Assembly (NCBI RefSeq): GCF_013315695.1
Contig: NZ_CP054353.1
DNA from: Escherichia coli
Lineage (GTDB): Bacteria > Pseudomonadota > Gammaproteobacteria > Enterobacterales > Enterobacteriaceae
Strand: one strand, 5' to 3'
Length of the DNA: 64,000 nucleotides
How positions within the stretch are numbered: the first letter of the stretch is position 1; every line of letters starts with the position of its first letter. Position numbers and translations under genes: made by a program. Of this stretch, positions 6,684 to 57,948 are shown piece by piece. The notes beneath the pieces are model-generated. The model saw nothing but the letters and a program-made list of their open reading frames with translations, was not told the origin of the DNA and ran no database searches.

Positions 6684-6780
6684 GCCTGATGCCGATTCGT
6701 AGGCCGGATAAGGCGCTCGCGCCGCATCCGGCGATGGTGCACTGAAGCCTGATTCGACGCTTACCGCGTCTTATCATGCC
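6684..6780. repeat. REP (repetitive extragenic palindrome) elements
   Basis: gccggataaggcgc...gcatccggc motifs typical of E. coli REP/PU units. Confidence 0.8.
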
Positions 6781-12921: not shown

Positions 12922-13045
12922 CAGCCTGATATAGCATTGCCGGATAAGGCGTTTACGCCGCATCCGGCATTTGAGCATAGTGCCTGATGCGACGCTTGAT
13001 GCGTCTTATCAGGCCTACAGGTGCACCGCATCCGGCAAACCATAC
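12922..13045. repeat. REP/BIME elements
   Basis: Multiple gccggataaggcg / gcctgatgcgacgc palindromic units. Confidence 0.8.
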
Positions 13046-22073: not shown

Positions 22074-23021
22074 TCAGGACAGGGTGGCGGGGATGATGAT
22101 TTGTTGCGGTTCGCTGCGTCCGGTTACCTGCGCGATCAACTGGTAGGCCGCCTGGCGTCCAGCTTCGGCGTAACCAGGATCTACGGTGACGATCTCCGGA
22201 TGAAGGAATTTCATTAATGGCGTATTACCGACGCTCGCCAGTTGCAAGGTGTCGATGCGTTGCTCTTGCAGGTATTTACTTGCGCCAAGTGCCAGCGTGT
22301 CGGTTGCGCACAGTAAGGCGGTAGTTTCAGGCGTAATCACTTTTACTACGTTCTCATAGCCTTGCTTCATAGCAAGGCCTGGCAGGGCGGCAACGGGATG
22401 CAGTTTATGCGCTTTGCAGAACGCCAGGTAGGCTTCGTGACGTCGCTTCCCGGTCGTCACGTCACTATGCGGCACGCCGAGATAACTGATATTGCGATGC
22501 CCCTGGTCATACAGCCGTTGCATCAGGATCTTGATTGCCCCTTCGTCGTCATAACAGACCGAAGCAAAGCCTTTTGCGTCACGCGCCAGCAGAACCAGCG
22601 ATGACTGCCAGTGGGCTAACATTTCTTCTGTTATGCCGGTAAAACCGAACAGCACTACGCCGTCGATATTACGCCGTTTCAGCACCCCCAAATGTTCGGC
22701 AACTAATTGCGGGGAAAACTGACTTTCCATCATGATTGGATCGTAACCTTGTTCATAGAACGCTGGCAGCATGGTTTGAACGGCGAGATTTTCTGACAAC
22801 GAATCCAGACGGGTGACAATGATGGCGACCACTTTATCGCTTTGCCCACGCATAGCGCGTGCAGAACGGGAAGGGGAAAATCCATGCTGATTCATCACTG
22901 CTTCAACACGCTCGCGCGTGCGCTGGCTCACGCCGCTTTCGTTATTCAGCACCCGGGAAACCGTAGATTTCCCCACGCCGCTTAAGCGCGCGATGTCTTT
23001 GATGGTCAGCCGATTTTGCAT
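22074..23021 (-). CDS. treR: Trehalose operon repressor, LacI family (315 aa)
   Basis: N-terminal HTH (LTIKDIARLSGVGKSTVSRVLNN) plus periplasmic-binding-like domain. Confidence 0.95.
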   Translation of the reverse strand: MQNRLTIKDIARLSGVGKSTVSRVLNNESGVSQRTRERVEAVMNQHGFSPSRSARAMRGQSDKVVAIIVTRLDSLSENLAVQTMLPAFYEQGYDPIMMESQFSPQLVAEHLGVLKRRNIDGVVLFGFTGITEEMLAHWQSSLVLLARDAKGFASVCYDDEGAIKILMQRLYDQGHRNISYLGVPHSDVTTGKRRHEAYLAFCKAHKLHPVAALPGLAMKQGYENVVKVITPETTALLCATDTLALGASKYLQEQRIDTLQLASVGNTPLMKFLHPEIVTVDPGYAEAGRQAAYQLIAQVTGRSEPQQIIIPATLS

Positions 23022-23094
23022 CCTGTTGTCCCGTAACGTGTTGTTTAATTATTTGAGGCTAACTTTACCCGTGCATTCAGCAATGGGTAAAGTC

Positions 23095-23112
23095 TGGTTT
23101 ATCGTTGGTTTA
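23095..23112 (+). promoter_or_regulatory. PhoP box upstream of mgtA
   Basis: Direct repeat tGGTTTA-tcgtt-GGTTTA matching the (T/G)GTTTA-N5-(T/G)GTTTA PhoP consensus. Confidence 0.6.
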
Positions 23113-23205
23113 GTTGCCAGCAGGTATTATATCGCCATAAATGCTACGAATATTATTGGATTCTCCTTATTATTTGCGGCGCTTTTTTCACTTACCGGAG
23201 GTTAT

Positions 23206-23259
23206 ATGGAACCTGATCCCACGCCTCTCCCTCGACGGAGATTAAAACTTTTCCGGTAA
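23206..23259 (+). CDS. mgtL: mgtA leader peptide MgtL (17 aa, proline-rich)
   Basis: ATG at 23206 encodes [17 protein letters not shown]; lies in the mgtA 5' leader. Confidence 0.85.
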
Positions 23260-23399
23260 GCCCGTCTTTTCACGGCGTTACCGGATGCGTAAGGCCGTGA
23301 CGTTTTAACGTCCCTGCTCAGCTTTATTACCTTCAGGTAAGGCTTCGCCACGCCTGAAGACATTTCTGTACTGTTTCAGACAGTGCGGAGGGACTCCTT

Positions 23400-26096
23400 A
23401 TGTTTAAAGAAATTTTTACCCGGCTCACTCGCCATTTACCTTCCCGTCTGGTTCATCGTGATCCATTGCCTGGCGTGCAGCAGACAGTGAATACGGTGGT
23501 CCCGCCGTCCTTAAGTGCGCAATGCCTGAAAATGGCGGTGATGCCCGAAGAAGAATTGTGGAAAACGTTCGACACCCATCCGGAAGGGTTACATCAGGCG
23601 GAAGTGGAATCTGCCCGCGAACAACATGGTGAAAATAAATTACCCGCACAACAACCGTCGCCGTGGTGGGTACATTTATGGGTCTGCTATCGCAACCCCT
23701 TTAATATTTTACTCACCATTCTCGGCGCTATTTCTTACGCCACGGAAGATTTATTTGCCGCGGGCGTTATCGCGCTAATGGTCGCTATTTCAACGTTGCT
23801 GAACTTTATTCAGGAAGCACGTTCCACTAAAGCGGCAGATGCCCTGAAAGCGATGGTCAGCAATACCGCGACGGTGCTGCGCGTAATTAACGACAAAGGC
23901 GAAAATGGCTGGCTGGAGATCCCGATCGACCAGCTGGTGCCCGGCGATATTATAAAACTGGCGGCGGGAGATATGATCCCGGCAGATTTACGTATCTTGC
24001 AGGCGCGGGATCTGTTCGTCGCTCAGGCGTCGTTAACCGGTGAGTCTCTGCCCGTGGAAAAAGCCGCTACCACTCGCCAGCCGGAGCACAGCAATCCGCT
24101 GGAGTGCGACACGCTGTGTTTTATGGGCACCACCGTGGTGAGCGGCACGGCACAAGCAATGGTGATTGCTACAGGTGCCAATACCTGGTTTGGTCAACTG
24201 GCGGGGCGTGTTAGTGAGCAGGAAAGCGAGCCGAATGCCTTTCAGCAAGGGATCAGCCGCGTCAGTATGCTGCTGATTCGCTTTATGCTGGTGATGGCAC
24301 CGGTGGTGCTGTTAATCAATGGCTACACCAAAGGCGACTGGTGGGAAGCGGCGCTGTTTGCGCTTTCGGTCGCGGTAGGCCTAACGCCGGAAATGTTGCC
24401 GATGATTGTTACCTCGACGCTGGCGCGCGGCGCAGTAAAGCTGTCGAAACAGAAAGTGATCGTCAAACATCTGGATGCTATTCAGAACTTTGGCGCAATG
24501 GATATTCTGTGCACTGATAAAACCGGCACCCTGACACAGGATAAAATTGTGCTGGAGAATCATACCGATATCTCCGGTAAAACCAGCGAACGCGTGCTGC
24601 ATAGCGCGTGGTTGAACAGTCATTACCAGACCGGGCTTAAAAACCTGCTCGATACAGCGGTGCTCGAAGGTACGGATGAAGAGTCAGCGCGCTCGCTGGC
24701 CAGTCGTTGGCAAAAAATCGATGAGATTCCGTTTGATTTCGAGCGTCGCCGGATGTCGGTGGTAGTGGCAGAAAATACCGAGCACCATCAGCTGGTTTGC
24801 AAAGGTGCATTGCAGGAAATCCTCAATGTGTGTTCGCAGGTGCGTCACAATGGCGAGATTGTGCCGCTCGATGACATCATGCTGCGTAAGATTAAGCGGG
24901 TTACTGATACGCTGAATCGTCAGGGGCTGCGCGTGGTTGCGGTGGCGACGAAATACCTGCCAGCGCGTGAAGGAGATTACCAGCGGGCGGATGAATCCGA
25001 CCTGATCCTCGAAGGATATATTGCTTTCCTTGATCCGCCAAAAGAGACAACCGCTCCGGCACTGAAGGCATTAAAAGCGAGTGGAATTACCGTAAAAATC
25101 CTTACTGGCGACAGTGAGTTAGTTGCAGCGAAAGTGTGCCATGAAGTGGGGCTGGACGCGGGAGAGGTGGTCATTGGTAGTGATATTGAAACGCTATCTG
25201 ACGACGAACTGGCAAATCTTGCACAGCGCACCACGCTGTTTGCCCGCCTGACGCCGATGCATAAAGAACGCATTGTGACCTTACTGAAGCGCGAAGGGCA
25301 TGTGGTTGGCTTTATGGGCGATGGTATTAATGATGCGCCCGCCTTACGCGCTGCGGATATCGGCATTTCTGTGGACGGCGCGGTAGATATTGCCCGTGAA
25401 GCGGCTGATATCATCCTGCTGGAAAAAAGCCTGATGGTGCTGGAAGAGGGGGTTATTGAGGGACGTCGCACTTTCGCCAACATGCTGAAATACATCAAAA
25501 TGACGGCGAGTTCTAACTTCGGTAATGTGTTCAGCGTGCTGGTGGCGAGTGCTTTCTTGCCCTTCCTGCCGATGTTGCCGTTACATTTGCTTATTCAGAA
25601 CCTGCTGTACGATGTGTCACAGGTGGCGATCCCGTTTGATAACGTCGACGACGAGCAAATTCAAAAGCCGCAGCGTTGGAATCCGGCGGATCTGGGGCGC
25701 TTTATGATCTTCTTCGGACCGATCAGCTCGATCTTCGATATTCTGACGTTTTGCCTGATGTGGTGGGTATTCCATGCCAACACGCCGGAAACACAAACGC
25801 TGTTCCAGTCGGGATGGTTTGTGGTGGGCTTACTGTCGCAAACGCTGATTGTGCATATGATCCGCACCCGCCGTGTGCCGTTTATTCAGAGCTGTGCATC
25901 GTGGCCGTTAATGATCATGACCGTGATCGTGATGATTGTCGGGATCGCATTGCCGTTTTCACCGCTGGCCAGTTATCTGCAATTACAGGCGCTGCCGTTA
26001 AGCTATTTCCCGTGGCTGGTTGCGATTCTGGCAGGGTATATGACATTAACCCAGTTGGTGAAAGGGTTCTATAGCCGTCGTTACGGCTGGCAGTAA
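23400..26096 (+). CDS. mgtA: Magnesium-transporting P-type ATPase (898 aa)
   Basis: P-type ATPase motifs DKTGTLT and GDGINDAPAL. Confidence 0.97.
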   Translation: MFKEIFTRLTRHLPSRLVHRDPLPGVQQTVNTVVPPSLSAQCLKMAVMPEEELWKTFDTHPEGLHQAEVESAREQHGENKLPAQQPSPWWVHLWVCYRNPFNILLTILGAISYATEDLFAAGVIALMVAISTLLNFIQEARSTKAADALKAMVSNTATVLRVINDKGENGWLEIPIDQLVPGDIIKLAAGDMIPADLRILQARDLFVAQASLTGESLPVEKAATTRQPEHSNPLECDTLCFMGTTVVSGTAQAMVIATGANTWFGQLAGRVSEQESEPNAFQQGISRVSMLLIRFMLVMAPVVLLINGYTKGDWWEAALFALSVAVGLTPEMLPMIVTSTLARGAVKLSKQKVIVKHLDAIQNFGAMDILCTDKTGTLTQDKIVLENHTDISGKTSERVLHSAWLNSHYQTGLKNLLDTAVLEGTDEESARSLASRWQKIDEIPFDFERRRMSVVVAENTEHHQLVCKGALQEILNVCSQVRHNGEIVPLDDIMLRKIKRVTDTLNRQGLRVVAVATKYLPAREGDYQRADESDLILEGYIAFLDPPKETTAPALKALKASGITVKILTGDSELVAAKVCHEVGLDAGEVVIGSDIETLSDDELANLAQRTTLFARLTPMHKERIVTLLKREGHVVGFMGDGINDAPALRAADIGISVDGAVDIAREAADIILLEKSLMVLEEGVIEGRRTFANMLKYIKMTASSNFGNVFSVLVASAFLPFLPMLPLHLLIQNLLYDVSQVAIPFDNVDDEQIQKPQRWNPADLGRFMIFFGPISSIFDILTFCLMWWVFHANTPETQTLFQSGWFVVGLLSQTLIVHMIRTRRVPFIQSCASWPLMIMTVIVMIVGIALPFSPLASYLQLQALPLSYFPWLVAILAGYMTLTQLVKGFYSRRYGWQ

Positions 26097-40002: not shown

Positions 40003-41818
<1,816 letters not shown>

Positions 41819-47270: not shown

Positions 47271-47355
47271 GCCGAAGTGGCGAAATCGGTAGACGCAGTT
47301 GATTCAAAATCAACCGTAGAAATACGTGCCGGTTCGAGTCCGGCCTTCGGCACCA
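47271..47355 (+). tRNA. leuX: tRNA-Leu (anticodon CAA), 85 nt with long variable arm
   Basis: Sequence gccgaagtggcgaaatcggtagacgcagttgattCAAaatcaaccgtagaaatacgtgccggttcgagtccggccttcggcacca. Confidence 0.95.
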
Positions 47356-47889
47356 TCTACATTTTCCTCTTGAAAAACAAGCGATTAAGTAAATTATTTT
47401 ACCTTTTTTGCCTATCTAATCTTCACTGATTCTTTCCCGTATAAAAGCCACTGTGATTGTTAATGGCTTTGGTATGTTAGCACGCAGTGGCAAGTAGTTA
47501 CCAGGCTCAACCTTGTACTGCATACGCCAGTATGCCCCCCTTTGAAGCAGGAAGACGCGCCGCCGTCTCTAAACCTATGCCAAGCACTTTTAACCGTTCC
47601 ACACTTAGTTCGGCGTTCCGTTCAAGCCTGTCGTGGTGACTTACCACGAATAAACAAGCAAATTCGCGGTATGGTATTCGTTACGAGAGCGGTTAACTGA
47701 CAAGACTCCTGTGATACGCCTAAGGTGCTTAAATTGATGCGTCCAACATGGCACAAAAGGCGGTCTATCGTTTAATTTTGCTCCATACATCAACTGGCAT
47801 TGCCAGCTGTATGGGGCTTGGTCTGCTGGTTCCGATGAACGGATTAAATTGCTAAGATGCAGACCATAAGCCATAAGGCGGAGATAAGT

Positions 47890-49098
47890 ATGAAATCTGT
47901 AGAACTATTTGCCGGTGCTGGTGGCTTGGCTATGGGTTGCGAAATTGCTGGTTTTGAGCATCTTGCAGTCGTTGAATGGGATAAATGGGCCTGTGATACC
48001 GTTAGAGAGAACAAAAAGAATGGCTTTCCGCTGTTGTCTGATTGGGATCTTTTTGAGGGTGATGTAAGAGAATTTGATTGGTCGAAAATCCCTAAAGGGA
48101 TTGACCTTCTTGCGGGAGGGCCACCTTGCCAGCCATTTTCAATCGGTGGTAAGCACAAGGCTAATTCTGATTCGCGGGACATGTTTCCAGCGACAGCAGA
48201 AGCGATCAGGCAAATTCGCCCTAAGGCTTTCATCGTCGAGAATGTGAAAGGCTTAACACGGGCAACCTTTGCGAGCTATTTCCAGTACATCCAGTTACAG
48301 CTTGAGTTTCCAGAAGTAGCCCCGCGAAATGGCGAAGACTGGAGCGAGCATTTAAAACGCTTGCAGGAAGAAAAAACCAGTGGAAAGAACAAAGGGAGAG
48401 GGCTGACGTATAACGTTCTGGCTACGTTAGTCAATGCAGCAGACTACGGCATCCCACAAAAACGTGAGCGTGTCTTCATTGTTGGCTTCCGCGATGATCT
48501 TGAAATTGAGTGGTCGTTCCCTAAACCGACACACAGTTATGATGCACTCGTTTATGATCAGTGGGTTACTGGTGATTACTGGAAACGACATGGTTTAGAA
48601 ATGCCAACTGTTCCAAGCCAGATGGTTAACCGTATCGCAAAATTGCGTAAAAATCCTCCCGATACACTTCCGTGGAAAACTGTTCGAGATGCAATCGCGG
48701 ATTTGCCAGATCCTGAAACAAAGGCGGCAAAGATGATCCGGAATCATGCGTTCCAGGCGGGGGCACGAACTTATCCCGGTCATACCGGAAGCCCCTTAGA
48801 TCTGCCAGCTAAAACGCTCAAAGCAGGTGCTCATGGCGTTCCTGGGGGCGAGAACATGCTTGTTCGTGATGATGGCTCAGTACGCTATTTTACTGTGCGA
48901 GAAAGTGCCAGAATTCAAACATTTCCCGATAGTTATCGTTTTCACGGGAGTTGGACTGAAACTATGAGGCAGTTAGGTAACGCTGTGCCGGTTCATTTGG
49001 CGTATTGCGTTGCCAGCAGTGTAGCGGAAAAGCTGCTGACCTCTGAAATTGGGAACATCCTTAAGCAGGGTGGCAATTATAAAAGGGCTTCTGCATGA
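47890..49098 (+). CDS. DNA (cytosine-5)-methyltransferase, Type II R-M modification subunit (~402 aa)
   Basis: C5-MTase motifs I FAGAGG, IV PPCQPFS, VI ENV, VIII QKRERVFIVG, X GNAV; SD GGAG upstream of ATG 47890 (ORF track starts at 47857). Confidence 0.85.
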   Translation: MKSVELFAGAGGLAMGCEIAGFEHLAVVEWDKWACDTVRENKKNGFPLLSDWDLFEGDVREFDWSKIPKGIDLLAGGPPCQPFSIGGKHKANSDSRDMFPATAEAIRQIRPKAFIVENVKGLTRATFASYFQYIQLQLEFPEVAPRNGEDWSEHLKRLQEEKTSGKNKGRGLTYNVLATLVNAADYGIPQKRERVFIVGFRDDLEIEWSFPKPTHSYDALVYDQWVTGDYWKRHGLEMPTVPSQMVNRIAKLRKNPPDTLPWKTVRDAIADLPDPETKAAKMIRNHAFQAGARTYPGHTGSPLDLPAKTLKAGAHGVPGGENMLVRDDGSVRYFTVRESARIQTFPDSYRFHGSWTETMRQLGNAVPVHLAYCVASSVAEKLLTSEIGNILKQGGNYKRASA

Positions 49099-49745
49099 CA
49101 GGAAAGGTCATACCATTTAATCCACTTGATAAACAAAATTTAGGTGCCAGCGTTGCGGAAGCCTTATTGAGCAAAGATGCTCATCCTCTGGAGGAGTTAA
49201 CCTCATTTCAAGGAGCAGGGATTTACGCAATTTATTACACTGGCGATCATCCTGCTTATAGGCAACTGGCAGAACTGAATCGTGACGGGCAATTTCGATT
49301 GCCTATCTACGTGGGTAAGGCCGTCCCAGCAGGGGCGAGAATGGGGCTTACCAACCCTGATAAGGTTGGTAACGTTCTGTTTAGGCGCTTGAAAGAACAT
49401 GCAGAAAGTATTCGCGCAGCGGAAAATCTTTCGATTGAAGATTTTTATTGTCGATTTTTGGTTGTTGATGACATCTGGATCCCATTGGGAGAATCGCTGG
49501 TTATCTCTCGCTTTAAACCGATTTGGAATTCGTCTATTGATGGTTTCGGTAATCATGACCCAGGTAAGCATCGCTACACTGGTTTACGTCCTCGCTGGGA
49601 CTTTATGCACCCGGGGAGAGGATGGGCTCAAAATTTACGTGAGCGTGATGAAACTGTGGATGAACTCATTCGTGATTCTATACAGTATCTTCAGAATTTA
49701 CCGCCTTGCTTGGCTCAGAAATTTATCGAAGCTGAAGGCGATTAA
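49095..49745 (+). CDS. GIY-YIG-family restriction endonuclease, Eco29kI/Cfr42I-like (216 aa)
   Basis: GIY...YVG motif (GIYAIYYTGD...RLPIYVGKA); start overlaps the MTase stop (ATGA). Confidence 0.65.
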   Translation: MTGKVIPFNPLDKQNLGASVAEALLSKDAHPLEELTSFQGAGIYAIYYTGDHPAYRQLAELNRDGQFRLPIYVGKAVPAGARMGLTNPDKVGNVLFRRLKEHAESIRAAENLSIEDFYCRFLVVDDIWIPLGESLVISRFKPIWNSSIDGFGNHDPGKHRYTGLRPRWDFMHPGRGWAQNLRERDETVDELIRDSIQYLQNLPPCLAQKFIEAEGD

Positions 49746-49866
49746 TCAGCAAATGATCATCGGAGGCATCTGCCTCCGAATGTGATTAAGCCTTGGTTGA
49801 CAAAGTGGTTGCTTAAAACATTAAGCGTTAATTTTCTGGCCCTCTACCTTCTGACGTGCATAATTC

Positions 49867-50442
49867 TCAAATATCAGGGAGTTGCAAGAACGACTTAAGT
49901 CGGTAGAAGGTTGCTTTGCTGATCTCTAACCTATCCTGGACCGCTGCTGGTGGTAATCCTCGTGCTAATAACTCACGTACTTGTTCAACGGTTGCTTTGA
50001 TCGGTCTGCCGCAATGCTTACCTTCCGACTGAGCTCGTTTGATTCCTGCGGCTCTACGCTCTGCGATTAGGTCTTTTTCCAGGCTGGCAAGTCCTGCCAT
50101 CATAGTGAGCATGGCTTTACCCACTGGTGTTGAAAGATCAAACCCCTCTCGCAAGCTGACAACCTTCACACCCTTCATTTGCAACATTTCAACAGTAGAT
50201 AGTACATCGATAGTGTTACGTCCCAAGCGGTTTATAGCAATCACGATCAGCGTATCGCCTTCTCGCACATAATTGAGTAGTTCAGCAAACCCTGGACGCT
50301 CTCCTGCCTTGATTGCACCACTCACCGCTTCATCACTAAACCAGCGAGTTACGCTATAACCAGCATCGGCTATCTGCTTCTTCTGGTTTTCAACGTTTTG
50401 ATCGCTGGTGGAAACTCGCACATATCCGATCACAGTTGTCAT
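49867..50442 (-). CDS. Serine recombinase, resolvase/invertase family (191 aa)
   Basis: N-terminal catalytic motif IGYVRVSTSDQ and C-terminal HTH. Confidence 0.85.
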   Translation of the reverse strand: MTTVIGYVRVSTSDQNVENQKKQIADAGYSVTRWFSDEAVSGAIKAGERPGFAELLNYVREGDTLIVIAINRLGRNTIDVLSTVEMLQMKGVKVVSLREGFDLSTPVGKAMLTMMAGLASLEKDLIAERRAAGIKRAQSEGKHCGRPIKATVEQVRELLARGLPPAAVQDRLEISKATFYRLKSFLQLPDI

Positions 50443-50454
50443 GATGTTCTCTAA

Positions 50455-50576
50455 GTCTCAAAAGGTAGTGTCAAAATAATAGCTGTCTCAAAATTAAAGA
50501 TCAACCTTTTGAGACAAGGCGAAGCCGCATTCTGTCGTTGCGTCGGTGTGGTCTTATAAGGAGATGGTTTTGAGAC
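50455..50576. promoter_or_regulatory. Candidate res/recombination site: GTCTCAAAA repeats upstream of the serine recombinase
   Basis: GTCTCAAAA at 50455 and 50485, GTGTCAAAA at 50468, inverted TTTTGAGAC at 50507 and 50568. Confidence 0.45.
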
Positions 50577-50681
50577 TGGATAGCAGCGGTTTAGGAATAG
50601 AGGCTTGGAACGAGAGTATGGGGAGAATGGAAATTCGGAATGGGCGGTCAACTTATTGGGCGTGATTGCTCACGCCTTTGT

Positions 50682-51033
50682 TTAGATCTCAGAACACAGG
50701 CTCAGCGTGTAGAGTGCCGTTTCACCATCGTTGTTAGTTGGGCGCATAACGAAAACTGGATCACTGCCGTTGTCGATGTAAGTAACCGCTATTCCACCGT
50801 CTGGGGTGGCGTACATCTTCGCAATACTTTTCTCTCCAATGAAACCCAGCCGCCAGGTTTTACCACCCATGCTCACTTTCATGATTTTGTCCCGCACATC
50901 GAGGCGAGTTTCGACAGACGATTTTTGGCTACCAGAATCTATCTGCCCTTCCTGAATGGCCTTACAGGTGAATGTGGTTGCACTTGAGGCGAAGGGGGGG
51001 GACGAGCAGCGCCGCGAGAATCAATTTTTTCAT
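50682..51033 (-). pseudogene. Small secreted protein gene interrupted by a G8/C8 homopolymer frameshift (possible phase-variable gene)
   Basis: ATG at 51033 encodes signal peptide MKKLILAALLV then 8 C at 50994..51001 shifts frame; 7 or 10 C would join it to the 71-aa ORF 50682..50897. Confidence 0.5.
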
Positions 51034-51213
51034 GGTCTTCCTTTTGGATACGAGTTAAGAGTTCGTCGGGAGACATTATAAAATCTTTAATTGATAAAAA
51101 CGATCAATTTCTATCGTATTGATCGATAAAATTGATCATAATTGAAACTATAAATCCTACGCTCAGTCGTTATGGATGAGGTTTTTTATAAGAGAACTCA
51201 ACGGGATGATGTT

Positions 51214-51420
51214 ATGAAAAGAGCAATGATGGTGATGTGTGGGCTACTGTTTTCACAGTTGGTAGCAGCAGGGCAGATCACAATGATCGATCCCCAGCAG
51301 GATACGACGGAGAATGGCAAGACGCTTTGCACCTACGAGAACAGCCAGTATGTTTTTACCTACGTCACTAAAGGGCAGTGCCCCTATGCAAAGACTTTCG
51401 ATACTCAGGATTCAGAGTAG
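51214..51420 (+). CDS. Small secreted cysteine-containing protein (68 aa from MKRAMM)
   Basis: Signal peptide MKRAMMVMCGLLFSQLVAAG; mature part has two Cys (TLCTY, GQCPY). Confidence 0.5.
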   Translation: MKRAMMVMCGLLFSQLVAAGQITMIDPQQDTTENGKTLCTYENSQYVFTYVTKGQCPYAKTFDTQDSE

Positions 51421-52604
51421 AGGCTGCATAAAATAGGAAGTGTTGTTTAACTTCATGAAAAGACAGGTGTGCTTAGCACAAGCCTCCAACGGATTGATTG
51501 TTAATTCTTCTGATAACGGCACAGCGCAAGGCTTTACGCAAAGAGAGTGATAGTTACTATCTTGATGACTATGGCAATTTTCCCCCTGTAACAACGGCAT
51601 TCATTACCTGCTAATTACCAGCGGATTACGCGCCAGTTTGATGGGAATTAACTCAGGGTTATTGCATGGGGTAGTGTGGAGTGAGCAGGGTGACAGTCTA
51701 CCGTTGGGTGAAGGGCTGATAGGTAATCGACGCGAAGCGCCGGAACCATACTGTTATGCGCTGGCCTTGGTGCCAGGCTCACGCCGCGCATGAAAGATAG
51801 CCATTACAGGAGAGATAATTTTTGACAAGTTACCTTCATCAAAGGTGCTTCTCCTGTATAAATGCTTGTTATGCTCGCTATGCTCCCAAACACAAACCCA
51901 TTAAACCCAACTAACTTAAGGTTAGTTAATTGGTTTTCTCTCTCTCTTGGGCTACTACCGCCCAAACTTTGCTTAATGCCATACAGCGACTACGCCGCCA
52001 TTAACAACACTCCACAATGATCCAATGGCATTCCTGCTTAATGTCATCCACCGATCTTGATTAGCCACCAACCAAACAACCACCCTAAATCTTTTAGGCT
52101 GTCTGTTTATCTGGTGCAAGGTAGCTATGACATTACCATACGTGCAAACATCCCAAGCCAATCATCACTGATTGGCTCGTGCTGATGCACTTCAGTGCAG
52201 AGAGAGAATCTCTCTACTATTATAGCGTATTTAGTAGGTCCCTGTATTTAAAGGAAAAATTAGGGTGAAAATCGCCATTGTTCACTTTTTTTCTCAAGAA
52301 ATGGCGAGATGCTGTTCGTAAATGGGAGGCATGGCTGTCTTCTCTGGTGGCAAGTTCTACCACAAATTTTGATTGACAGCAACCATCTATTTCTGGTATA
52401 AGAAGCACTAATTGCAAAGCAAAAATGCAACTAATTGAAAATGACCAAAAATATTTCATGAGATCACCGTTTGGGTATTGACAAACGTTAGTGGTCTATG
52501 GTATTCTTAATACTAAGAAGGGGAGAAAACCTTCTGAACTTTTCAGCCCTGGGCAGGGTAACTGCCTGGGGCTTTTTGCATCCAAAATCCGAAGGAGGCC
52601 ATTA

Positions 52605-52781
52605 TTGAAGTATTACAGCAGTGACCAGATTTTTAATGACCTGGTGAGCGGCGAAGTGAAACGCCACGTTATTTACGCATCTATGCAAGCAGCAAAATCG
52701 AGAGGGTATACAGACCGAATGGAAATGTTTCAATCTGCAATTATCCGTTATGACCAACACCGAAGGGAGAACACCAACTAA
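52605..52781 (+). CDS. Hypothetical small protein (58 aa, TTG start)
   Basis: Perfect SD AGGAGG 6 nt upstream of TTG 52605; stop overlaps the next gene's SD; function unknown. Confidence 0.4.
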   Translation: MKYYSSDQIFNDLVSGEVKRHVIYASMQAAKSRGYTDRMEMFQSAIIRYDQHRRENTN

Positions 52782-52790
52782 GGAGGAACA

Positions 52791-53711
52791 TTGATTCAAG
52801 CATACGAAGACGGCTATTTTTACAGAGATACCCCGCACCACGATCACTGCCCGCTTTCAGCATTTTCCAGACCATCCCAGCAATTCATCGTTATTGATAA
52901 TGTTCTGTACGTTGTCGAAGTGGAAAGTGGTGAAATTCTTCACTACGACTCGACAGAGTATTTGCTTGATGGTGGCATTGTTCAGGATCTGCATTTGAGT
53001 TACTCGACAGCAGACACCGCCAAATCAAAACAGGCTCACCGTGAATACGCTAATAAGCTGGGCGACCTTCCAGGGAATGCAGCCTATAACGGGATCAAGG
53101 AATACGCAGACGTATTAAGCAAGCCAGATTTCAAGAAAGTATTTGCATTGTGTCAGGAAGTAGATAGACGCAATGTAGTGTTTATAAAACGTGCGGATTT
53201 GAGCATAATACTGAACACCACGCCGGATCATCTCAATCGTGTATTATCTGCTCTTGAACGTAAGCACTACATCAAAGTTGATAAAGCTGAACACCAGAAA
53301 GGAGTATTAAAACTGTGGGTTAATCCTTCGTTTGTCTGGAAGGGTGATTCAGCTAACCGCTACTTATCTGGATATTTGCAGGGCTTCCCAATCTTGGAAC
53401 GTAAACGCTCCACAAAACGTTCTGACGTGCTCGACACGCTCACGGCTGCTGCAATGGTTGCCTTTGATACCTGGCACATTGAACACGGTTATAAGGCCAA
53501 TCAGCCTCATTCTAATGAATGGTATGCAGAGATCACGATGTACGAAAACGCCTACGGCGAAGGGGTGAGGCTTGCAGCAGAAAATAAGACATTGAACAAG
53601 TTATTGAACCCGGCAACATCTGAGGGGGATTTCGTTTATGAGCTATTCACTACGGCACAATACAGGGAATACCTGCAAACATTGGCAAAACAAGTAAGGA
53701 GATTACACTGA
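52791..53711 (+). CDS. Hypothetical protein (306 aa, TTG start) with possible winged-helix region
   Basis: SD AGGAGG at 52781..52786, TTG at 52791; N-terminal His/Cys cluster (HHDHCP); central helix-rich segment; no recognised catalytic motif. Confidence 0.6.
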   Translation: MIQAYEDGYFYRDTPHHDHCPLSAFSRPSQQFIVIDNVLYVVEVESGEILHYDSTEYLLDGGIVQDLHLSYSTADTAKSKQAHREYANKLGDLPGNAAYNGIKEYADVLSKPDFKKVFALCQEVDRRNVVFIKRADLSIILNTTPDHLNRVLSALERKHYIKVDKAEHQKGVLKLWVNPSFVWKGDSANRYLSGYLQGFPILERKRSTKRSDVLDTLTAAAMVAFDTWHIEHGYKANQPHSNEWYAEITMYENAYGEGVRLAAENKTLNKLLNPATSEGDFVYELFTTAQYREYLQTLAKQVRRLH

Positions 53712-53995
53712 ACCAATGTTTTGTAATAAAGAAGCCAGCACAATACTTATTTGAACTAAATTAAGCAACTCTCATACACACCGCTCTTTTGGTGAGTTAT
53801 TTATTACTATCTTTAAGGTGATGAGTGTTTATACTGTATTAAATTATTATAAATAAGGGGATGGTGTATGATTACAGCTCTTTATTGGTGTTTGTTCTTT
53901 CAGTTTGCGCTGTATTTTTTGTCTAAATTAAATTTAAATTGAAAATTAGCCCTGATCTTGAAATAGTTCAGGGCTGGAATTTCTAAAAAATAACA

Positions 53996-54955
53996 TCAGT
54001 GTGCTTTTAGTTCATCTTTAGCTAATGAGTCATAGAGTATTTTTGTGAGCGGAGACTCTAAATAATCATCACTAAGTAGTTTAATAAAATGCTTTTGGGA
54101 TTCTTTTGTTTTTACGAGCAATTGTGTGCCGTCTTCACTTACAATTAAAACTGTTGAAAGATAGGTATGCTTGCTTACATAATCGATAATTTCTGGCACA
54201 TCAATTTTCCCCAGTACAGGTGAGTGTTTGGCAATTTTGGCAAGCTTCCTTGAGAAAGAAATTTCTTTTGCACTCTTCTCAAGGTGAGTAAGATCTTCGA
54301 TAAGCAATGAAGCTTTCAATGCTTCCAAAGCCACCGTTGCTTGAGCTTCAATAACCTGATGGAACTGCATCGTTATTTCTAAAGTTTTTTGATTTTTTAT
54401 CAGGAATTCGTCGTCTATAAGAGCCAAGTCATAATTATAATCTAATCGGAACACTTGGGTTGGCAATTCTTTTAAATACCCGTCTGCGTCTGGTATCAAG
54501 TTAAACAATTTTCGGCTTTGCTCAAAAACCATGAGGTTTGTTTTGTTCTTATACAATGACAAACACTTATTGTTGCCTCTTAACTGAATTATTATCCCTT
54601 TCACGTCAGTAAATTTATTATTTAAATCATAATAATCCTGAGAGTTAGGCGGTATGGCTATTGCATTTTTTATAAAATCAAACTCTTTTGGATGTTCTTC
54701 ATAATCAAATGCAAACAAGGCATTTTTTCTATCATCAAAATTCGAAAGGAGAGGAATGGTTAAATCCTCATTTGTCACAATGTCGTCGTAAAGCCTAATT
54801 TTGAATCCTTCAACAATTTTTGGTAAAGCTTCAGCATCTATTTTAGATAATTTTAATTCATAATTATCTTCAGTTTTAACTATAAAGATAATTCTTATAC
54901 CTGAGAAATTATCGAAAATTTCGGTGATTTGATTTTTAAAATTCACAGGGGTCAT
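53996..54955 (-). CDS. Candidate Kiwa KwaB-like (DUF4868-like) defence protein (319 aa)
   Basis: AT-rich soluble ORF coupled by 1-nt TAATG overlap to the upstream 4-TM protein; assignment is by architecture only. Confidence 0.45.
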   Translation of the reverse strand: MTPVNFKNQITEIFDNFSGIRIIFIVKTEDNYELKLSKIDAEALPKIVEGFKIRLYDDIVTNEDLTIPLLSNFDDRKNALFAFDYEEHPKEFDFIKNAIAIPPNSQDYYDLNNKFTDVKGIIIQLRGNNKCLSLYKNKTNLMVFEQSRKLFNLIPDADGYLKELPTQVFRLDYNYDLALIDDEFLIKNQKTLEITMQFHQVIEAQATVALEALKASLLIEDLTHLEKSAKEISFSRKLAKIAKHSPVLGKIDVPEIIDYVSKHTYLSTVLIVSEDGTQLLVKTKESQKHFIKLLSDDYLESPLTKILYDSLAKDELKAH

Positions 54956-55542
54956 TATTTTTTCCTTGCTATGAAAACGTAGTCATCAAAAAAACTATAG
55001 AATACTTGATCGTCAACAGTCAGCACATCCATCGAGATTGCAATGACGTTTTTTACTTCACCACTTCCTGCATGAGAAATGTTAACTCTATACAACTTAT
55101 AACCGAAAAGCGCCAAAGTAGGATTCGCATAATACTTATCCGTTTTAATGAAAATTAAACCAATAACTACTATTAAGAGAAAGTACGCAATGTTTTTCTG
55201 AGGGTCATCAAAACTGAATCCCATAAAAGGTACTATGTAAGTTGCTAAGAAAGTCAAACTTTCATAGCTCTCACTTTGGCAAGCAGTGATTGTTACACAG
55301 TCAGCATTGTTGACCTTCGTCAATCCTTTAAACCTTCTATAGAAATAAAATGCTATTCCTATAAAAATTAAACAAATTATTGAGATTATGTTGCTGGAAG
55401 CTAATTGATAAAAACCTATAAAATGGCAGGAAGAGCCATAACAAAATGGGATTTTTGCGCTCAAAATGATAATAAAAACAAACAGCAACATTAAAGACAG
55501 TATGTATAGTCCCATCTTGTTGAATGTGCTTTTTCGTTTCAT
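54955..55542 (-). CDS. Candidate Kiwa KwaA-like membrane protein (~195 aa, four predicted TM helices)
   Basis: Four hydrophobic segments; start taken at MKRKSTF with GGGGGA SD (ORF track starts 10 codons upstream). Confidence 0.45.
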   Translation of the reverse strand: MKRKSTFNKMGLYILSLMLLFVFIIILSAKIPFCYGSSCHFIGFYQLASSNIISIICLIFIGIAFYFYRRFKGLTKVNNADCVTITACQSESYESLTFLATYIVPFMGFSFDDPQKNIAYFLLIVVIGLIFIKTDKYYANPTLALFGYKLYRVNISHAGSGEVKNVIAISMDVLTVDDQVFYSFFDDYVFIARKK

Positions 55543-55826
55543 GTTATCCCCCAGTGATGAAATCATAATCAAAACTTGATCATGTGAACATCAAAAGCAT
55601 ACCTTAAAGCACTGGTTTTTTGTACAGCAATCGGCAAATTCATGCGTACTATCGAACTTACAAGAGGACGCATAGTAGATTTTCTGATCCAAATTGCCAT
55701 CATGTACTTTTAATTCATGTAGAGTAGCCAATGAAGTATCAGCAATTACATGATTTTATTGTCTATTTTTTATGTTTTTTTGTAAAACACCAGAAGATTG
55801 AAAAGGGCCAATGAGGCCCCTTGGCG

Positions 55827-56078
55827 TTATTTACGGTTTTTGTTGGATTGAGCCAGCACGGAAGCAGCAAGCTGCTTGGTTAAAGTACTGGAACGTGGAT
55901 TATCCAGCGCCGCAGATGCTTTATGTTCCATTGCACCACTTGTCTGATTTGAGGAACCTTTTTGAGAGAGAGCTGAACCAGCAAGGCTCTTCTGAATTGC
56001 AGATGCGTTGGGGTTGTTTAGGGTTTGTGCTGCGACTGATGCGACTTTACTTGATGTTTGCTTTGAATTGTTAGCCAT
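55827..56078 (-). CDS. Hypothetical low-complexity Ser/Ala/Gln-rich small protein with ~20-aa internal repeats (83 aa)
   Basis: Repeats of A-[AS]-x-[LA]-x-Q (SVAAQTLNNP / SLAGSALSQK / SAALDNPRSS / LAASVLAQSN); no TM segment. Confidence 0.35.
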   Translation of the reverse strand: MANNSKQTSSKVASVAAQTLNNPNASAIQKSLAGSALSQKGSSNQTSGAMEHKASAALDNPRSSTLTKQLAASVLAQSNKNRK

Positions 56079-56309
56079 TCTCAACACCTATTCAAGAAGT
56101 GAATTATTGAACATCTTGTATTTAAATCAAGAATGAATACAAGATGTAGTGTTAATGATAATCCTCACCGCTTCGCTGTGCAACGATGAAAAATCTCTTT
56201 ACTGGATAAAACTACAGTTTTAAAAATGTGCGGTATTTCTGCTTTCAAATTGGCTTAATGTGCATACATTTAGATGATACCACTGCGTTTTCTGATCGTT
56301 ATTCGTTCA

Positions 56310-57587
56310 CTATTTATCAGTTTTCTCACGTTGGGGCTCCGTCTCTATCTCTGGGTAACGTAATAGCTCGATGTATGGCTGTAGTTCAATCGGAGATGCT
56401 GCATTCTTGCTGTACGTCTTGAAACTTTCTGTAGAGCCGCGCTCATGACCCAAGAGAAGTGCGATCCGGTCTTCTGTAACTGGTTTTAACTTACCTCGTC
56501 CAACCCCCCCACGATCCAGAATCTGCGCCACTGCATGGCGTAGACTGTGAAAAACTTTCAACTCTGATCCTACTTCCCCCAATGCCTTACGTTTAGCCCT
56601 CGTAAAACGCTGTGAATGCCACGTAGAGCGCTTTCCATCTGCGCGGTCAGCTATCGACGCACGATAGAATAAAAAGCCGTTATGGGGCTTCTCACGCAGC
56701 GACAAAACCAACGGAGTGATCAGGCTATGCACCGGAATAATACGGGCTGCTGATTTGGTCTTCCCCTCCGTCACTTCGAAACATAACACCCCTTCAATCT
56801 CTCGGATGTTGGCTGCACGTAATGAACAAATTTCATTCAGGCGCATACCGCTATACATCCCGATCAGCGTTACATTTTGCATCTCTTCATCATTCGCCAT
56901 CACAGCGAACACCTTCGCCAATTCTCCAGGCTCAAATACTTCATAACTCACCTTGCTACTTTTGGCCTCCAGCGCATGACCGCGCCAGATGTTTTCTTGC
57001 GGTGCATCGTGGTAGCGATTACGGGCCAGATCCCAGATTTGAGCCAGTGCGCTGACATAGTTTTGTATGGTCTGTGGTGCTTTCTCCGTCTTGAGCTGAT
57101 CAAGCCAGCCTGTAACGGTGGTTCGGTTAACGTCACGAAGCTGAACATCACGCTTTTTCAGATGTTCTAAGAGCACTTCAACAGCCTTGTTTGTCTTCGA
57201 TAGCGTAGTGAGTTTGCGCTTCTCGCTGAACTGCAATAGATAAAGATCACGCATTTTCAGGAGGGATGGCACTCCTTGGGATTGGGTATTGCTCATGACA
57301 TGCTGAACAGGTGTTTCATGAACTCGGGCGCTAACTCTGCGTAGCTCTGCAATTGCCTGCTCAATCTTACTCCCTTCTCTTGGTTTGACCTGTTCCCGTA
57401 AACGTATCCATTCAACAGCGATAGCATCTCTGAACAATCGCGCCTGACGTATGTCACTTGTGCCAGTGCTCTTGACGAAGTAGCGCTTGTTGCCAAAAAG
57501 CGAGCGCATGTAAGCTGGAACGGTAATCCTTACCAGATAGTTTCCGCATGGATCTAAAACTAAGTAACGATCTCTCTTGAAACTCAT
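56310..57587 (-). CDS. Tyrosine site-specific recombinase (island integrase), ~425 aa
   Basis: C-terminal catalytic region with conserved R...HxxR...Y (SLRHAVAQ ... ESFKTYSK); adjacent to island att repeat. Confidence 0.85.
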   Translation of the reverse strand: MSFKRDRYLVLDPCGNYLVRITVPAYMRSLFGNKRYFVKSTGTSDIRQARLFRDAIAVEWIRLREQVKPREGSKIEQAIAELRRVSARVHETPVQHVMSNTQSQGVPSLLKMRDLYLLQFSEKRKLTTLSKTNKAVEVLLEHLKKRDVQLRDVNRTTVTGWLDQLKTEKAPQTIQNYVSALAQIWDLARNRYHDAPQENIWRGHALEAKSSKVSYEVFEPGELAKVFAVMANDEEMQNVTLIGMYSGMRLNEICSLRAANIREIEGVLCFEVTEGKTKSAARIIPVHSLITPLVLSLREKPHNGFLFYRASIADRADGKRSTWHSQRFTRAKRKALGEVGSELKVFHSLRHAVAQILDRGGVGRGKLKPVTEDRIALLLGHERGSTESFKTYSKNAASPIELQPYIELLRYPEIETEPQREKTDK

Positions 57588-57707
57588 GTTCACCCCGGCT
57601 ATTTTGTAAGGGCTTTTACATGGGGAAGTTTCCTGTGTAGATTGTTGGAGCGGCGAATTATTAGCAGTTGATTCAATAGCTTAGATCAGCTTGCTGGACA
57701 AGCGAAC

Positions 57708-57750
57708 ACCGTAGAAATACGTGCCGGTTCGAGCCCGGCCTTCGGCACCA
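57708..57750 (+). repeat. Direct repeat of leuX 3' end (island attR), 43 bp with one mismatch
   Basis: accgtagaaatacgtgccggttcgagCccggccttcggcacca versus tRNA 47313..47355 (T in the tRNA). Confidence 0.9.
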
Positions 57751-57764
57751 TCGGAACATCAATA

Positions 57765-57788
57765 GACGTCAACGGACGTCTTTTTTTG
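57765..57788 (+). terminator. Intrinsic terminator after the displaced tRNA 3'-end copy
   Basis: Hairpin gacgtc-aacg-gacgtc followed by T7. Confidence 0.7.
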
Positions 57789-57948
57789 TGCCTAAAATCC
57801 AGTATCCGCAAGGCTTTCCTCGCTTTTTCACTCAACCTAAGTCAACCTGATTCAATCTACATCAACTTACTGATGCGGGTACAACTGCGGGTATTTCCCG
57901 GTTCGATAATGTTTGTACCCACACAGAACCCTTGAAAGGATACTCATC

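Follow-up and report, generated by a model that had tools for sequence, protein, structure and literature searches.

The closest described relative of the region analysed here is the control region of Salmonella Typhimurium mgtA. Its promoter has been assigned to architecture I, with a class II activation site that overlaps the -35 region (PMC3335776); the PhoP box reads TGGTTTATCGTTGGTTTAA, the -10 element follows at a distance of 12 nt, -10 and +1 are 7 nt apart and the leader is 264 nt long (Zwir et al., PMC3335776). Binding of phosphorylated PhoP and PhoP/PhoQ-dependent induction at low Mg2+ have been described for mgtA of both E. coli and Salmonella (PMC11552253, PMC3335776). At high Mg2+, efficient translation of the leader open reading frame, mgtL, keeps the leader RNA in an OFF fold, which results in termination; when Mg2+ is low, the EPDP segment of the peptide makes the translating ribosome intrinsically unstable, an effect that is modulated by bL31 and EttA and visible as a toeprint at Pro3, and the ON fold is adopted (PMC11282234, PMC11552253). 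In E. coli, reporter assays and toeprinting showed that translation of mgtL is inversely coupled to mgtA expression (PMC11282234); proline limitation and hyperosmotic stress work via the proline codons of mgtL (PMC3641672). The mgtA leader is a textbook case of two combined signals: periplasmic Mg2+ acts on the promoter via PhoQ/PhoP, and cytoplasmic Mg2+, proline and the stability of the ribosome act on the leader via mgtL. PhoP binding, responsiveness to Mg2+ and proline, ribosome destabilisation on MgtL and the action of Rho are all taken here from the literature (PMC3335776, PMC11552253, PMC11282234, PMC3641672, PMC12360218).

The corA/corL leader of Salmonella and E. coli resembles that of mgtA in having an upstream open reading frame inside a stem A that forms a three-way junction, in using stems A and B together as the OFF state and an alternative fold as the ON state, and in having pyrimidine-rich rut regions on both sides of stem B and termination at about position 220 (PMC11552253). 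Unlike the mgtA leader, it is of unrelated sequence and is transcribed from a constitutive promoter without a PhoP box, and corL, unlike mgtL, starts with UUG and encodes a single proline (PMC11552253). In the trpL, pheL and pyrL attenuators, as at mgtA, the point that a ribosome has reached in a short leader open reading frame determines which hairpin forms, and with it read-through or termination. The mgtA leader differs from these three in that an intrinsic terminator is missing and the read-out is exposure of rut regions and Rho; its stall signal, too, is composed of proline and acidic codons and of Mg2+-dependent ribosome stability rather than of the shortage of one amino acid alone (PMC11282234).

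The sequence studied here belongs to a 64,000-nt stretch of DNA (hereafter, the window) that is E. coli chromosome with the gene order treB-treR / mgtL-mgtA / ridA-pyrI-pyrB; the order treR / mgtL-mgtA is common to the window and E. coli K-12 MG1655 (mgtL-mgtA, b4702-b4242). An initial annotation, which was produced from the raw sequence, had described positions 23095-23399, a span that contains the entire leader, as the mgtA leader with all components of the known Mg2+/proline-responsive control region visible. Each of these components was found at the place assigned to it, and Rfam family RF01056, RefSeq and TIGR01524 agree with the assignment. We are nearly certain that the region controls E. 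coli mgtA in response to Mg2+ at two layers, and nothing in the sequence is at odds with this identification. It is intact and ordinary, and it shows no departure from the described system; the annotation was correct in judging it to be known biology. The region is of value as a positive control only, in that a complex regulatory region of several parts was recognised by the first-stage reader from raw sequence, with coordinates that are correct to the base. For each sequence element, the present analysis established presence, position, integrity and conservation, and it also established both alternative folds. The regulated gene, the leader open reading frame and the leader transcript are as follows.

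23400-26096 (+): mgtA, the regulated gene, encoding a Mg2+-importing P-type ATPase of 898 aa (open reading frame, TIGR01524, RefSeq)
23206-23259 (+): mgtL, leader open reading frame of 17 codons, peptide MEPDPTPLP... (open reading frame, RefSeq)
23197-23201 (+): mgtL Shine-Dalgarno sequence GGAGG, within the 5' arm of stem A (sequence, fold)
23137-23399 (+): mgtA 5' leader RNA, about 263 nt, with a presumed start placed to within about 2 nt

The mgtA open reading frame scored 1606 bits against the equivalog model TIGR01524 (cut-off, 611), and in strain KL53 RefSeq annotates a 'magnesium-translocating P-type ATPase' at positions equal to 23400 onwards; the K-12 counterpart is b4242. The 17-aa MgtL that had been proposed at 23206-23259 is an uninterrupted frame from ATG to TAA, with 17 codons and a stop, and its coordinates coincide with those of mgtL in RefSeq, where the product 'mgtA regulatory leader peptide MgtL' is annotated at matching coordinates in KL53 and as b4702 in K-12. 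Its four proline codons are found at positions 3, 5, 7 and 9 and its acidic residues at positions 2 and 4 (the EPDP motif), and the peptide conforms to the pattern M-E/D-P-D/E-P-T-P with at least three prolines. The UAA stop codon (23257-59) is located inside the 3' arm of stem A, in CCGGUAAG.

Since the 7-nt spacing between -10 and +1 of Salmonella was applied, and the Salmonella leader is 264 nt long, we infer that transcription starts at about 23137, ca. 69 nt upstream of mgtL, and that the leader measures ca. 263 nt; the window would agree with Salmonella Typhimurium both in the ~7-nt spacing and in leader length (264 versus ~263 nt). The ~140 nt of leader that had been noted in front of mgtA do correspond to positions 23260-23399 (140 nt), but this is only the part that follows mgtL and not the whole leader. 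Salmonella mgtA is also alike in having a 17-codon mgtL in stem A, a stop codon in CCGGUAA, the same alternative A/B/C helices and, probably, a termination site at leader position ~215-220. Differences between the two species include the paralogous mgtCBR system of Salmonella, which is absent from E. coli.

Relatives of the leader were gathered by scanning a genome collection with the pattern ATGGANCCNGANCCCNCNCCNC, which was too degenerate: among the matches listed, 70 of at least 120 loci were unrelated GC-rich matches. The alignment used below consists of the window and 48 usable Enterobacteriaceae loci among the matches listed, i.e., 49 sequences, from genera including Citrobacter, Enterobacter, Klebsiella, Kluyvera, Kosakonia, Atlantibacter, Lelliottia and Leclercia, and it also includes Salmonella arizonae, E. 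albertii and E. whittamii. Among the matches listed, Salmonella is represented by subsp. arizonae (L112) only, with no S. enterica subsp. enterica; the MgtL peptide of this subsp. arizonae locus, MDPEPTPLPRWRVFLFR, differs from that of E. coli. The first eight mgtL codons were fixed by the search pattern throughout the 49-sequence set, and their conservation is partly imposed. In all 49 sequences, the mgtL frame is 15-17 codons long, its last residue is R and its stop is the UAA of CCGGUAA; CCGGAGG at the mgtL Shine-Dalgarno sequence is invariant in the same set.

The leader folds with a minimum free energy (MFE) of -86.9 kcal/mol (z = -4.4 relative to shuffled sequences). Positions 23191-23306 (+) match Rfam family RF01056 (Magnesium-II, magnesium-responsive RNA element) with 125.8 bits (gathering score, 40); the match is full-length (model positions 1-115 of 115; E = 5.5e-25), and the downstream open reading frame, 23400-26096, is of the mgtA type (TIGR01524), as the context of this family calls for. 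The structural elements were as follows.

23191-23260 (+): stem-loop A, a three-way junction enclosing nearly the whole of mgtL together with its ribosome-binding site (MFE, Rfam structure, RNAalifold)
23191-23199 with 23252-23260 (+): outer helix of stem A (MFE)
23208-23210 with 23217-23219 and 23226-23230 with 23237-23241 (+): inner hairpins of stem A (MFE)
23270-23300 (+): stem-loop B, which belongs to the OFF conformation of high Mg2+ (MFE, covariation, RNAalifold)
23252-23285 (+): alternative stem-loop C, the ON conformation (constrained fold)

Stem-loops A and B are the main elements of the MFE structure, and both were returned when RNAalifold was run on the alignment without a supplied structure. 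Across the 49 sequences, 98.4% of cells in the outer helix of stem A are paired and seven of its nine pairs never vary, while stem B is paired in 97.8% and has compensatory changes in 7 of 11 pairs. In a control, sliding the 3' partners by one to three columns lowered pairing from 87% to ~42%. A hairpin at 23143-23180, which is present in the E. coli MFE structure, is paired in only 60% across species and was rejected as a conserved element.

Stem C was formed in a fold in which positions 23191-23235 were blocked, mimicking a ribosome that is stalled or lost early in mgtL. It pairs UCCGGUAA (23252-59) with UUACCGGA (23278-85) and 23262-65 with 23272-75, and cannot coexist with stem A or stem B. 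Its pairs are kept in 88.3% of cells in the 49 sequences, most of them by invariance, and covariation support for it is weak. An extended 'stem D', in which the 3' arm of stem B pairs with 23316-23327 in a constrained fold, was also considered and rejected: its outer helices are 25-60% paired, and the inner hairpin alone is conserved.

As modelled from these folds, the leader has the classic 1:2 / 2:3 / 3:4 attenuator arrangement with the mgtL stop codon inside segment 2. At the elongation layer of control, it would take one of two mutually exclusive folds. In the OFF state, a ribosome would translate mgtL to its stop codon, CCGGUAAG would be occupied or re-paired as stem A, and stem B would form and leave the flanking pyrimidine-rich stretches exposed; transcription would then end prematurely near 23351, through Rho in the Salmonella model. 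In the ON state, the ribosome would stall or drop off early on the Glu-Pro-Asp-Pro / proline codons when cytoplasmic Mg2+ or Pro-tRNA is low, or when EF-P, EttA or bL31 is impaired. CCGGUAA (23253-59) would then pair with UUACCGG (23278-84) as stem C and prevent stem B, the rut regions would be masked, and RNA polymerase would read into mgtA.

What is sensed directly is still debated, the choice being between binding of Mg2+ to the RNA and Mg2+- and proline-dependent translation of mgtL (PMC11552253). Direct sensing of Mg2+ by the leader RNA has also been proposed, and structural probing of the response of the leader to Mg2+ is available in the literature (PMC11552253). Sequence analysis does not separate these two modes of Mg2+ sensing. 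It is conceivable, if somewhat unlikely, that the leader is primarily a riboswitch that binds Mg2+ directly, which stabilises A and B, and that mgtL serves only the proline and osmotic signals. In Rfam, the element is classed among the riboswitch aptamers, conservation of stems A and B is strong, and Mg2+-dependent folding of the RNA alone was sufficient to modulate Rho termination at Salmonella mgtA in vitro (PMC11552253). However, work in E. coli and Salmonella ascribes the Mg2+ response to the ribosome, which is destabilised on the EPDP/proline codons of MgtL to an extent that bL31 and EttA modulate (PMC11552253, PMC11282234), and stem A shows near-invariance instead of covariation. Such invariance would be expected if the sequence is under constraint as coding DNA and as a ribosome-binding site in addition to structure.

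In the reading that we prefer, with mgtL translation as the switch, the leader RNA downstream of mgtL should house the site at which transcription ends prematurely. The scan of positions 22950-23500 returned no terminator-like sites; the mgtA leader is known to lack an intrinsic terminator. Three elements of this part of the leader bear on termination.

23261-23271 (+): candidate rut region R1, CCCGUCUUUUC, rich in pyrimidines and located 5' of stem B (composition)
23305-23334 (+): candidate rut region R2, rich in C (33%), poor in G (10%) and located 3' of stem B (composition)
23331-23359 (+): conserved hairpin containing the 3' end at 23351 (85% paired, seven compensatory pairs)

The rut site has been described as pyrimidine-rich regions flanking stem B (PMC11552253), and the stretches on either side of stem B in the window fit this description. 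We converted the K-12 Term-seq 3' ends of Adams et al. (PMC7815308) to window coordinates with an offset of 4444225. The 3' end at 4467576 corresponds to position 23351, i.e., -49 relative to mgtA and ~215 in the leader (Term-seq, PMC7815308); it was reported with a Rho score of 1.56, with the entry 'significant Rho termination region: Yes', as bicyclomycin-sensitive, and with an intrinsic-terminator score of 1.46 (PMC7815308). The hairpin at 23331-23359 is the likely site of premature termination or pausing. A second K-12 3' end, 4467490 ('primary' for mgtL), falls at position 23265, 6 nt past the mgtL stop codon (Term-seq, PMC7815308); it sits in the loop of stem C and in the R1 stretch and could be a pause, termination or processing site.

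A role of Rho has been shown for Salmonella mgtA and is disputed for E. coli (PMC11552253, PMC12360218): ChIP gave no sign that Rho terminates transcription at mgtA of E. coli, and it was stated that the mechanism 'may not be conserved' (PMC11552253, PMC12360218). Term-seq (PMC7815308) and the ChIP reports (PMC11552253, PMC12360218) stand on opposite sides in this dispute, which concerns the E. coli leader in general and whether it works through Rho as in Salmonella, and is not specific to the window. Further elements, located between stem B and mgtA, are pertinent to it.

23297-23317 (+): small hairpin GACGU-UUUA-ACGUC (23299-23303 with 23308-23312), followed by a near-invariant GUCCCUG (covariation)
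23366-23388 (+): conserved hairpin directly upstream of the mgtA Shine-Dalgarno sequence (92% paired, compensatory changes in 6 of 10 pairs)
23387-23392 (+): mgtA Shine-Dalgarno sequence GGAGGG (sequence)

The small hairpin (23299-23312) is paired in 94.3% of cells in the 49 sequences, with compensatory changes in three of its five pairs. In the full-length MFE structure, the mgtA Shine-Dalgarno region (23389-94) is predicted to pair with GUCCCU at 23310-23315. This anti-Shine-Dalgarno pairing (23310-15/23389-94) is kept in 91.7% of cells in the 49 sequences, nearly all through conservation of the two motifs, and because almost no compensatory change was seen, we treat the helix as unproven.

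We regard it as unlikely that the E. coli leader works without Rho and that control is instead exerted by mRNA decay (RNase E) and/or by occlusion of the mgtA ribosome-binding site, for example through pairing of GUCCCU (23310-15) with AGGGAC (23389-94). The ChIP reports, in which E. coli mgtA showed no sign of termination by Rho (PMC11552253, PMC12360218), speak for such control, as do the targeting of the Salmonella mgtA transcript by RNase E (cited in PMC11552253) and the MFE pairing of the mgtA Shine-Dalgarno sequence with the near-invariant GUCCCU, 92% of which is kept across the 49 sequences. On the other hand, the bicyclomycin Term-seq 3' end at -49 is in a significant Rho region (Rho score 1.56; PMC7815308), and position 23351 is close to the site of Salmonella termination at leader position ~220 (PMC11552253). 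Northern data for E. coli, too, show a transcript level that follows mgtL translation (PMC11282234). As to the anti-Shine-Dalgarno helix, compensatory change amounts to one cell in each of two pairs, and the GUCCCU and mgtA Shine-Dalgarno motifs could be conserved for other reasons.

Apart from premature termination governed by mgtL, the hairpin at 23299-23312 and the GUCCCUG that follows may, in a model that we put forward as speculation with long odds against it, form an extra switch that couples the state of the attenuator to initiation of mgtA translation. The two elements lie outside the classical A/B/C description, and we did not find them discussed in the mgtA-leader papers cited here. 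If true, an extra translational switch would help explain why Rho dependence has been hard to demonstrate in E. coli.

Transcription of the leader would depend on two elements upstream of it.

23095-23112 (+): PhoP box, direct repeat TGGTTTA-TCGT-TGGTTTA, a class II activator site overlapping the -35 region (sequence, consensus scan)
23125-23130 (+): -10 hexamer TATTAT, 12 nt downstream of the end of the PhoP box (23112)

At 23095-23112, where a PhoP direct repeat had been annotated, we read TGGTTTATCGTTGGTTTA, with TGGTTTA occurring twice at a spacing of 11 bp. The PhoP consensus KGTTTA-N5-KGTTTA has a single match in the 64-kb window, GGTTTATCGTTGGTTTA at 23096-23112 (+), compared with 0.02 matches expected from dinucleotide shuffles, only 2 of 100 of which contained any match. 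In the 49-sequence Enterobacteriaceae alignment, the half-site cores G-T..A and G-T-T.A are invariant, as are three bases of the -10 hexamer (T, A and the final T). No sigma-70 consensus promoter was found in the scan of 22950-23500, and TATTAT is not accompanied by a -35 consensus. An activator-dependent promoter would be expected to lack one, and the empty scan is not evidence against a promoter, because PhoP-dependent promoters lack a -35 element. With a direct-repeat box that overlaps the -35 region, ~12 nt between box and -10, and a poor -35, the mgtA promoter of the window has the features of architecture I. Compared with the experimentally characterised box of Salmonella mgtA, 18 of 19 positions of the E. 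coli box are identical, and the 12-nt spacing to -10 is shared (PMC3335776). At this initiation layer, low periplasmic Mg2+ would be sensed by PhoQ, and phosphorylated PhoP would bind the repeat at 23095-23112; the bound protein, overlapping the missing -35 element, would activate the promoter with its -10 at 23125-23130.

That the PhoP-like repeat and the short open reading frame are chance features of an AT-rich intergenic region has a vanishingly small probability in our view: a 17-codon frame and a degenerate 17-nt motif are each small, but the motif is expected only 0.02 times in shuffles, the half-site cores, the -10 core and the frame with its stop are conserved across 49 sequences, the Rfam match has E = 5.5e-25, the frame is annotated by RefSeq and the region is shared by 5423 of 5426 E. 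coli genomes, so that conservation and the Rfam score already refute this explanation.

Comparison with the characterised mgtA leaders of Salmonella and E. coli, the check that the initial annotation had suggested, bore it out: 18 of 19 positions are shared with the Salmonella PhoP box, as given above, and 23141-23420 is identical to K-12 MG1655. Relative to K-12, five single-base differences are found in the treR-mgtL intergenic region, at 23032, 23058, 23064, 23117 and 23140. Position 23117 belongs to the spacer between the PhoP box and the -10 hexamer and 23140 is at about +4 of the leader; all five fall outside the PhoP box, the -10 hexamer, mgtL and the three stems (A, B and C). The 401 bases from 23020 to 23420 are 100% identical to strain KL53; of 5426 complete E. 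coli genomes, 5425 contain a match to them, and in 5423 the match covers 80% or more. In E. coli GCU-H1 (NZ_CP178558.1), the match is confined to the initial 120 nt of the query (the treR end); judging by this match, the mgtA promoter and leader appear to be disrupted or replaced in this strain, one of three complete genomes without an intact control region.

Elsewhere in the window, a second classical leader-peptide attenuator is found ~5 kb from mgtL, where the pyrL leader peptide of the pyrBI attenuator was located at 28174-28308 (-) by collinearity with KL53. Between 31794 and 40202, identity to KL53 drops from 99.7% to 96.2% and a small indel is present at ~31794-31946. The drop and the indel together suggest a recombination patch covering a hypothetical gene, argF, rraB, yjgM, yjgN, valS and holC.

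The Rfam search of the window also returned four matches to naRNA4, all on the (+) strand, at 6702-6780, 12938-13015, 40058-40133 and 40154-40229; a tandem duplication relative to KL53 includes the pair near 40.0-40.3 kb. A full-length match to Ysr276 (Yersinia sRNA 276, antisense type; 180 bits) was obtained at 41063-41257 (+). It would be antisense to pepA, since the aligned KL53 block has pepA on the opposite strand.

A tRNA-Leu(CAA) gene is present at 47271-47355, where KL53 annotates a tRNA-Leu, and is followed by an integrated island (47356-64000) that differs from the island of the otherwise collinear KL53. According to annotation in matching genomes, the island carries two tyrosine integrases, a DNA cytosine methyltransferase, an Eco29kI-family restriction endonuclease, the defence protein KwaB of the Kiwa system and a number of IS elements; among 5426 complete E. 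coli genomes, one (EcPF7) covers 80% or more of the island.
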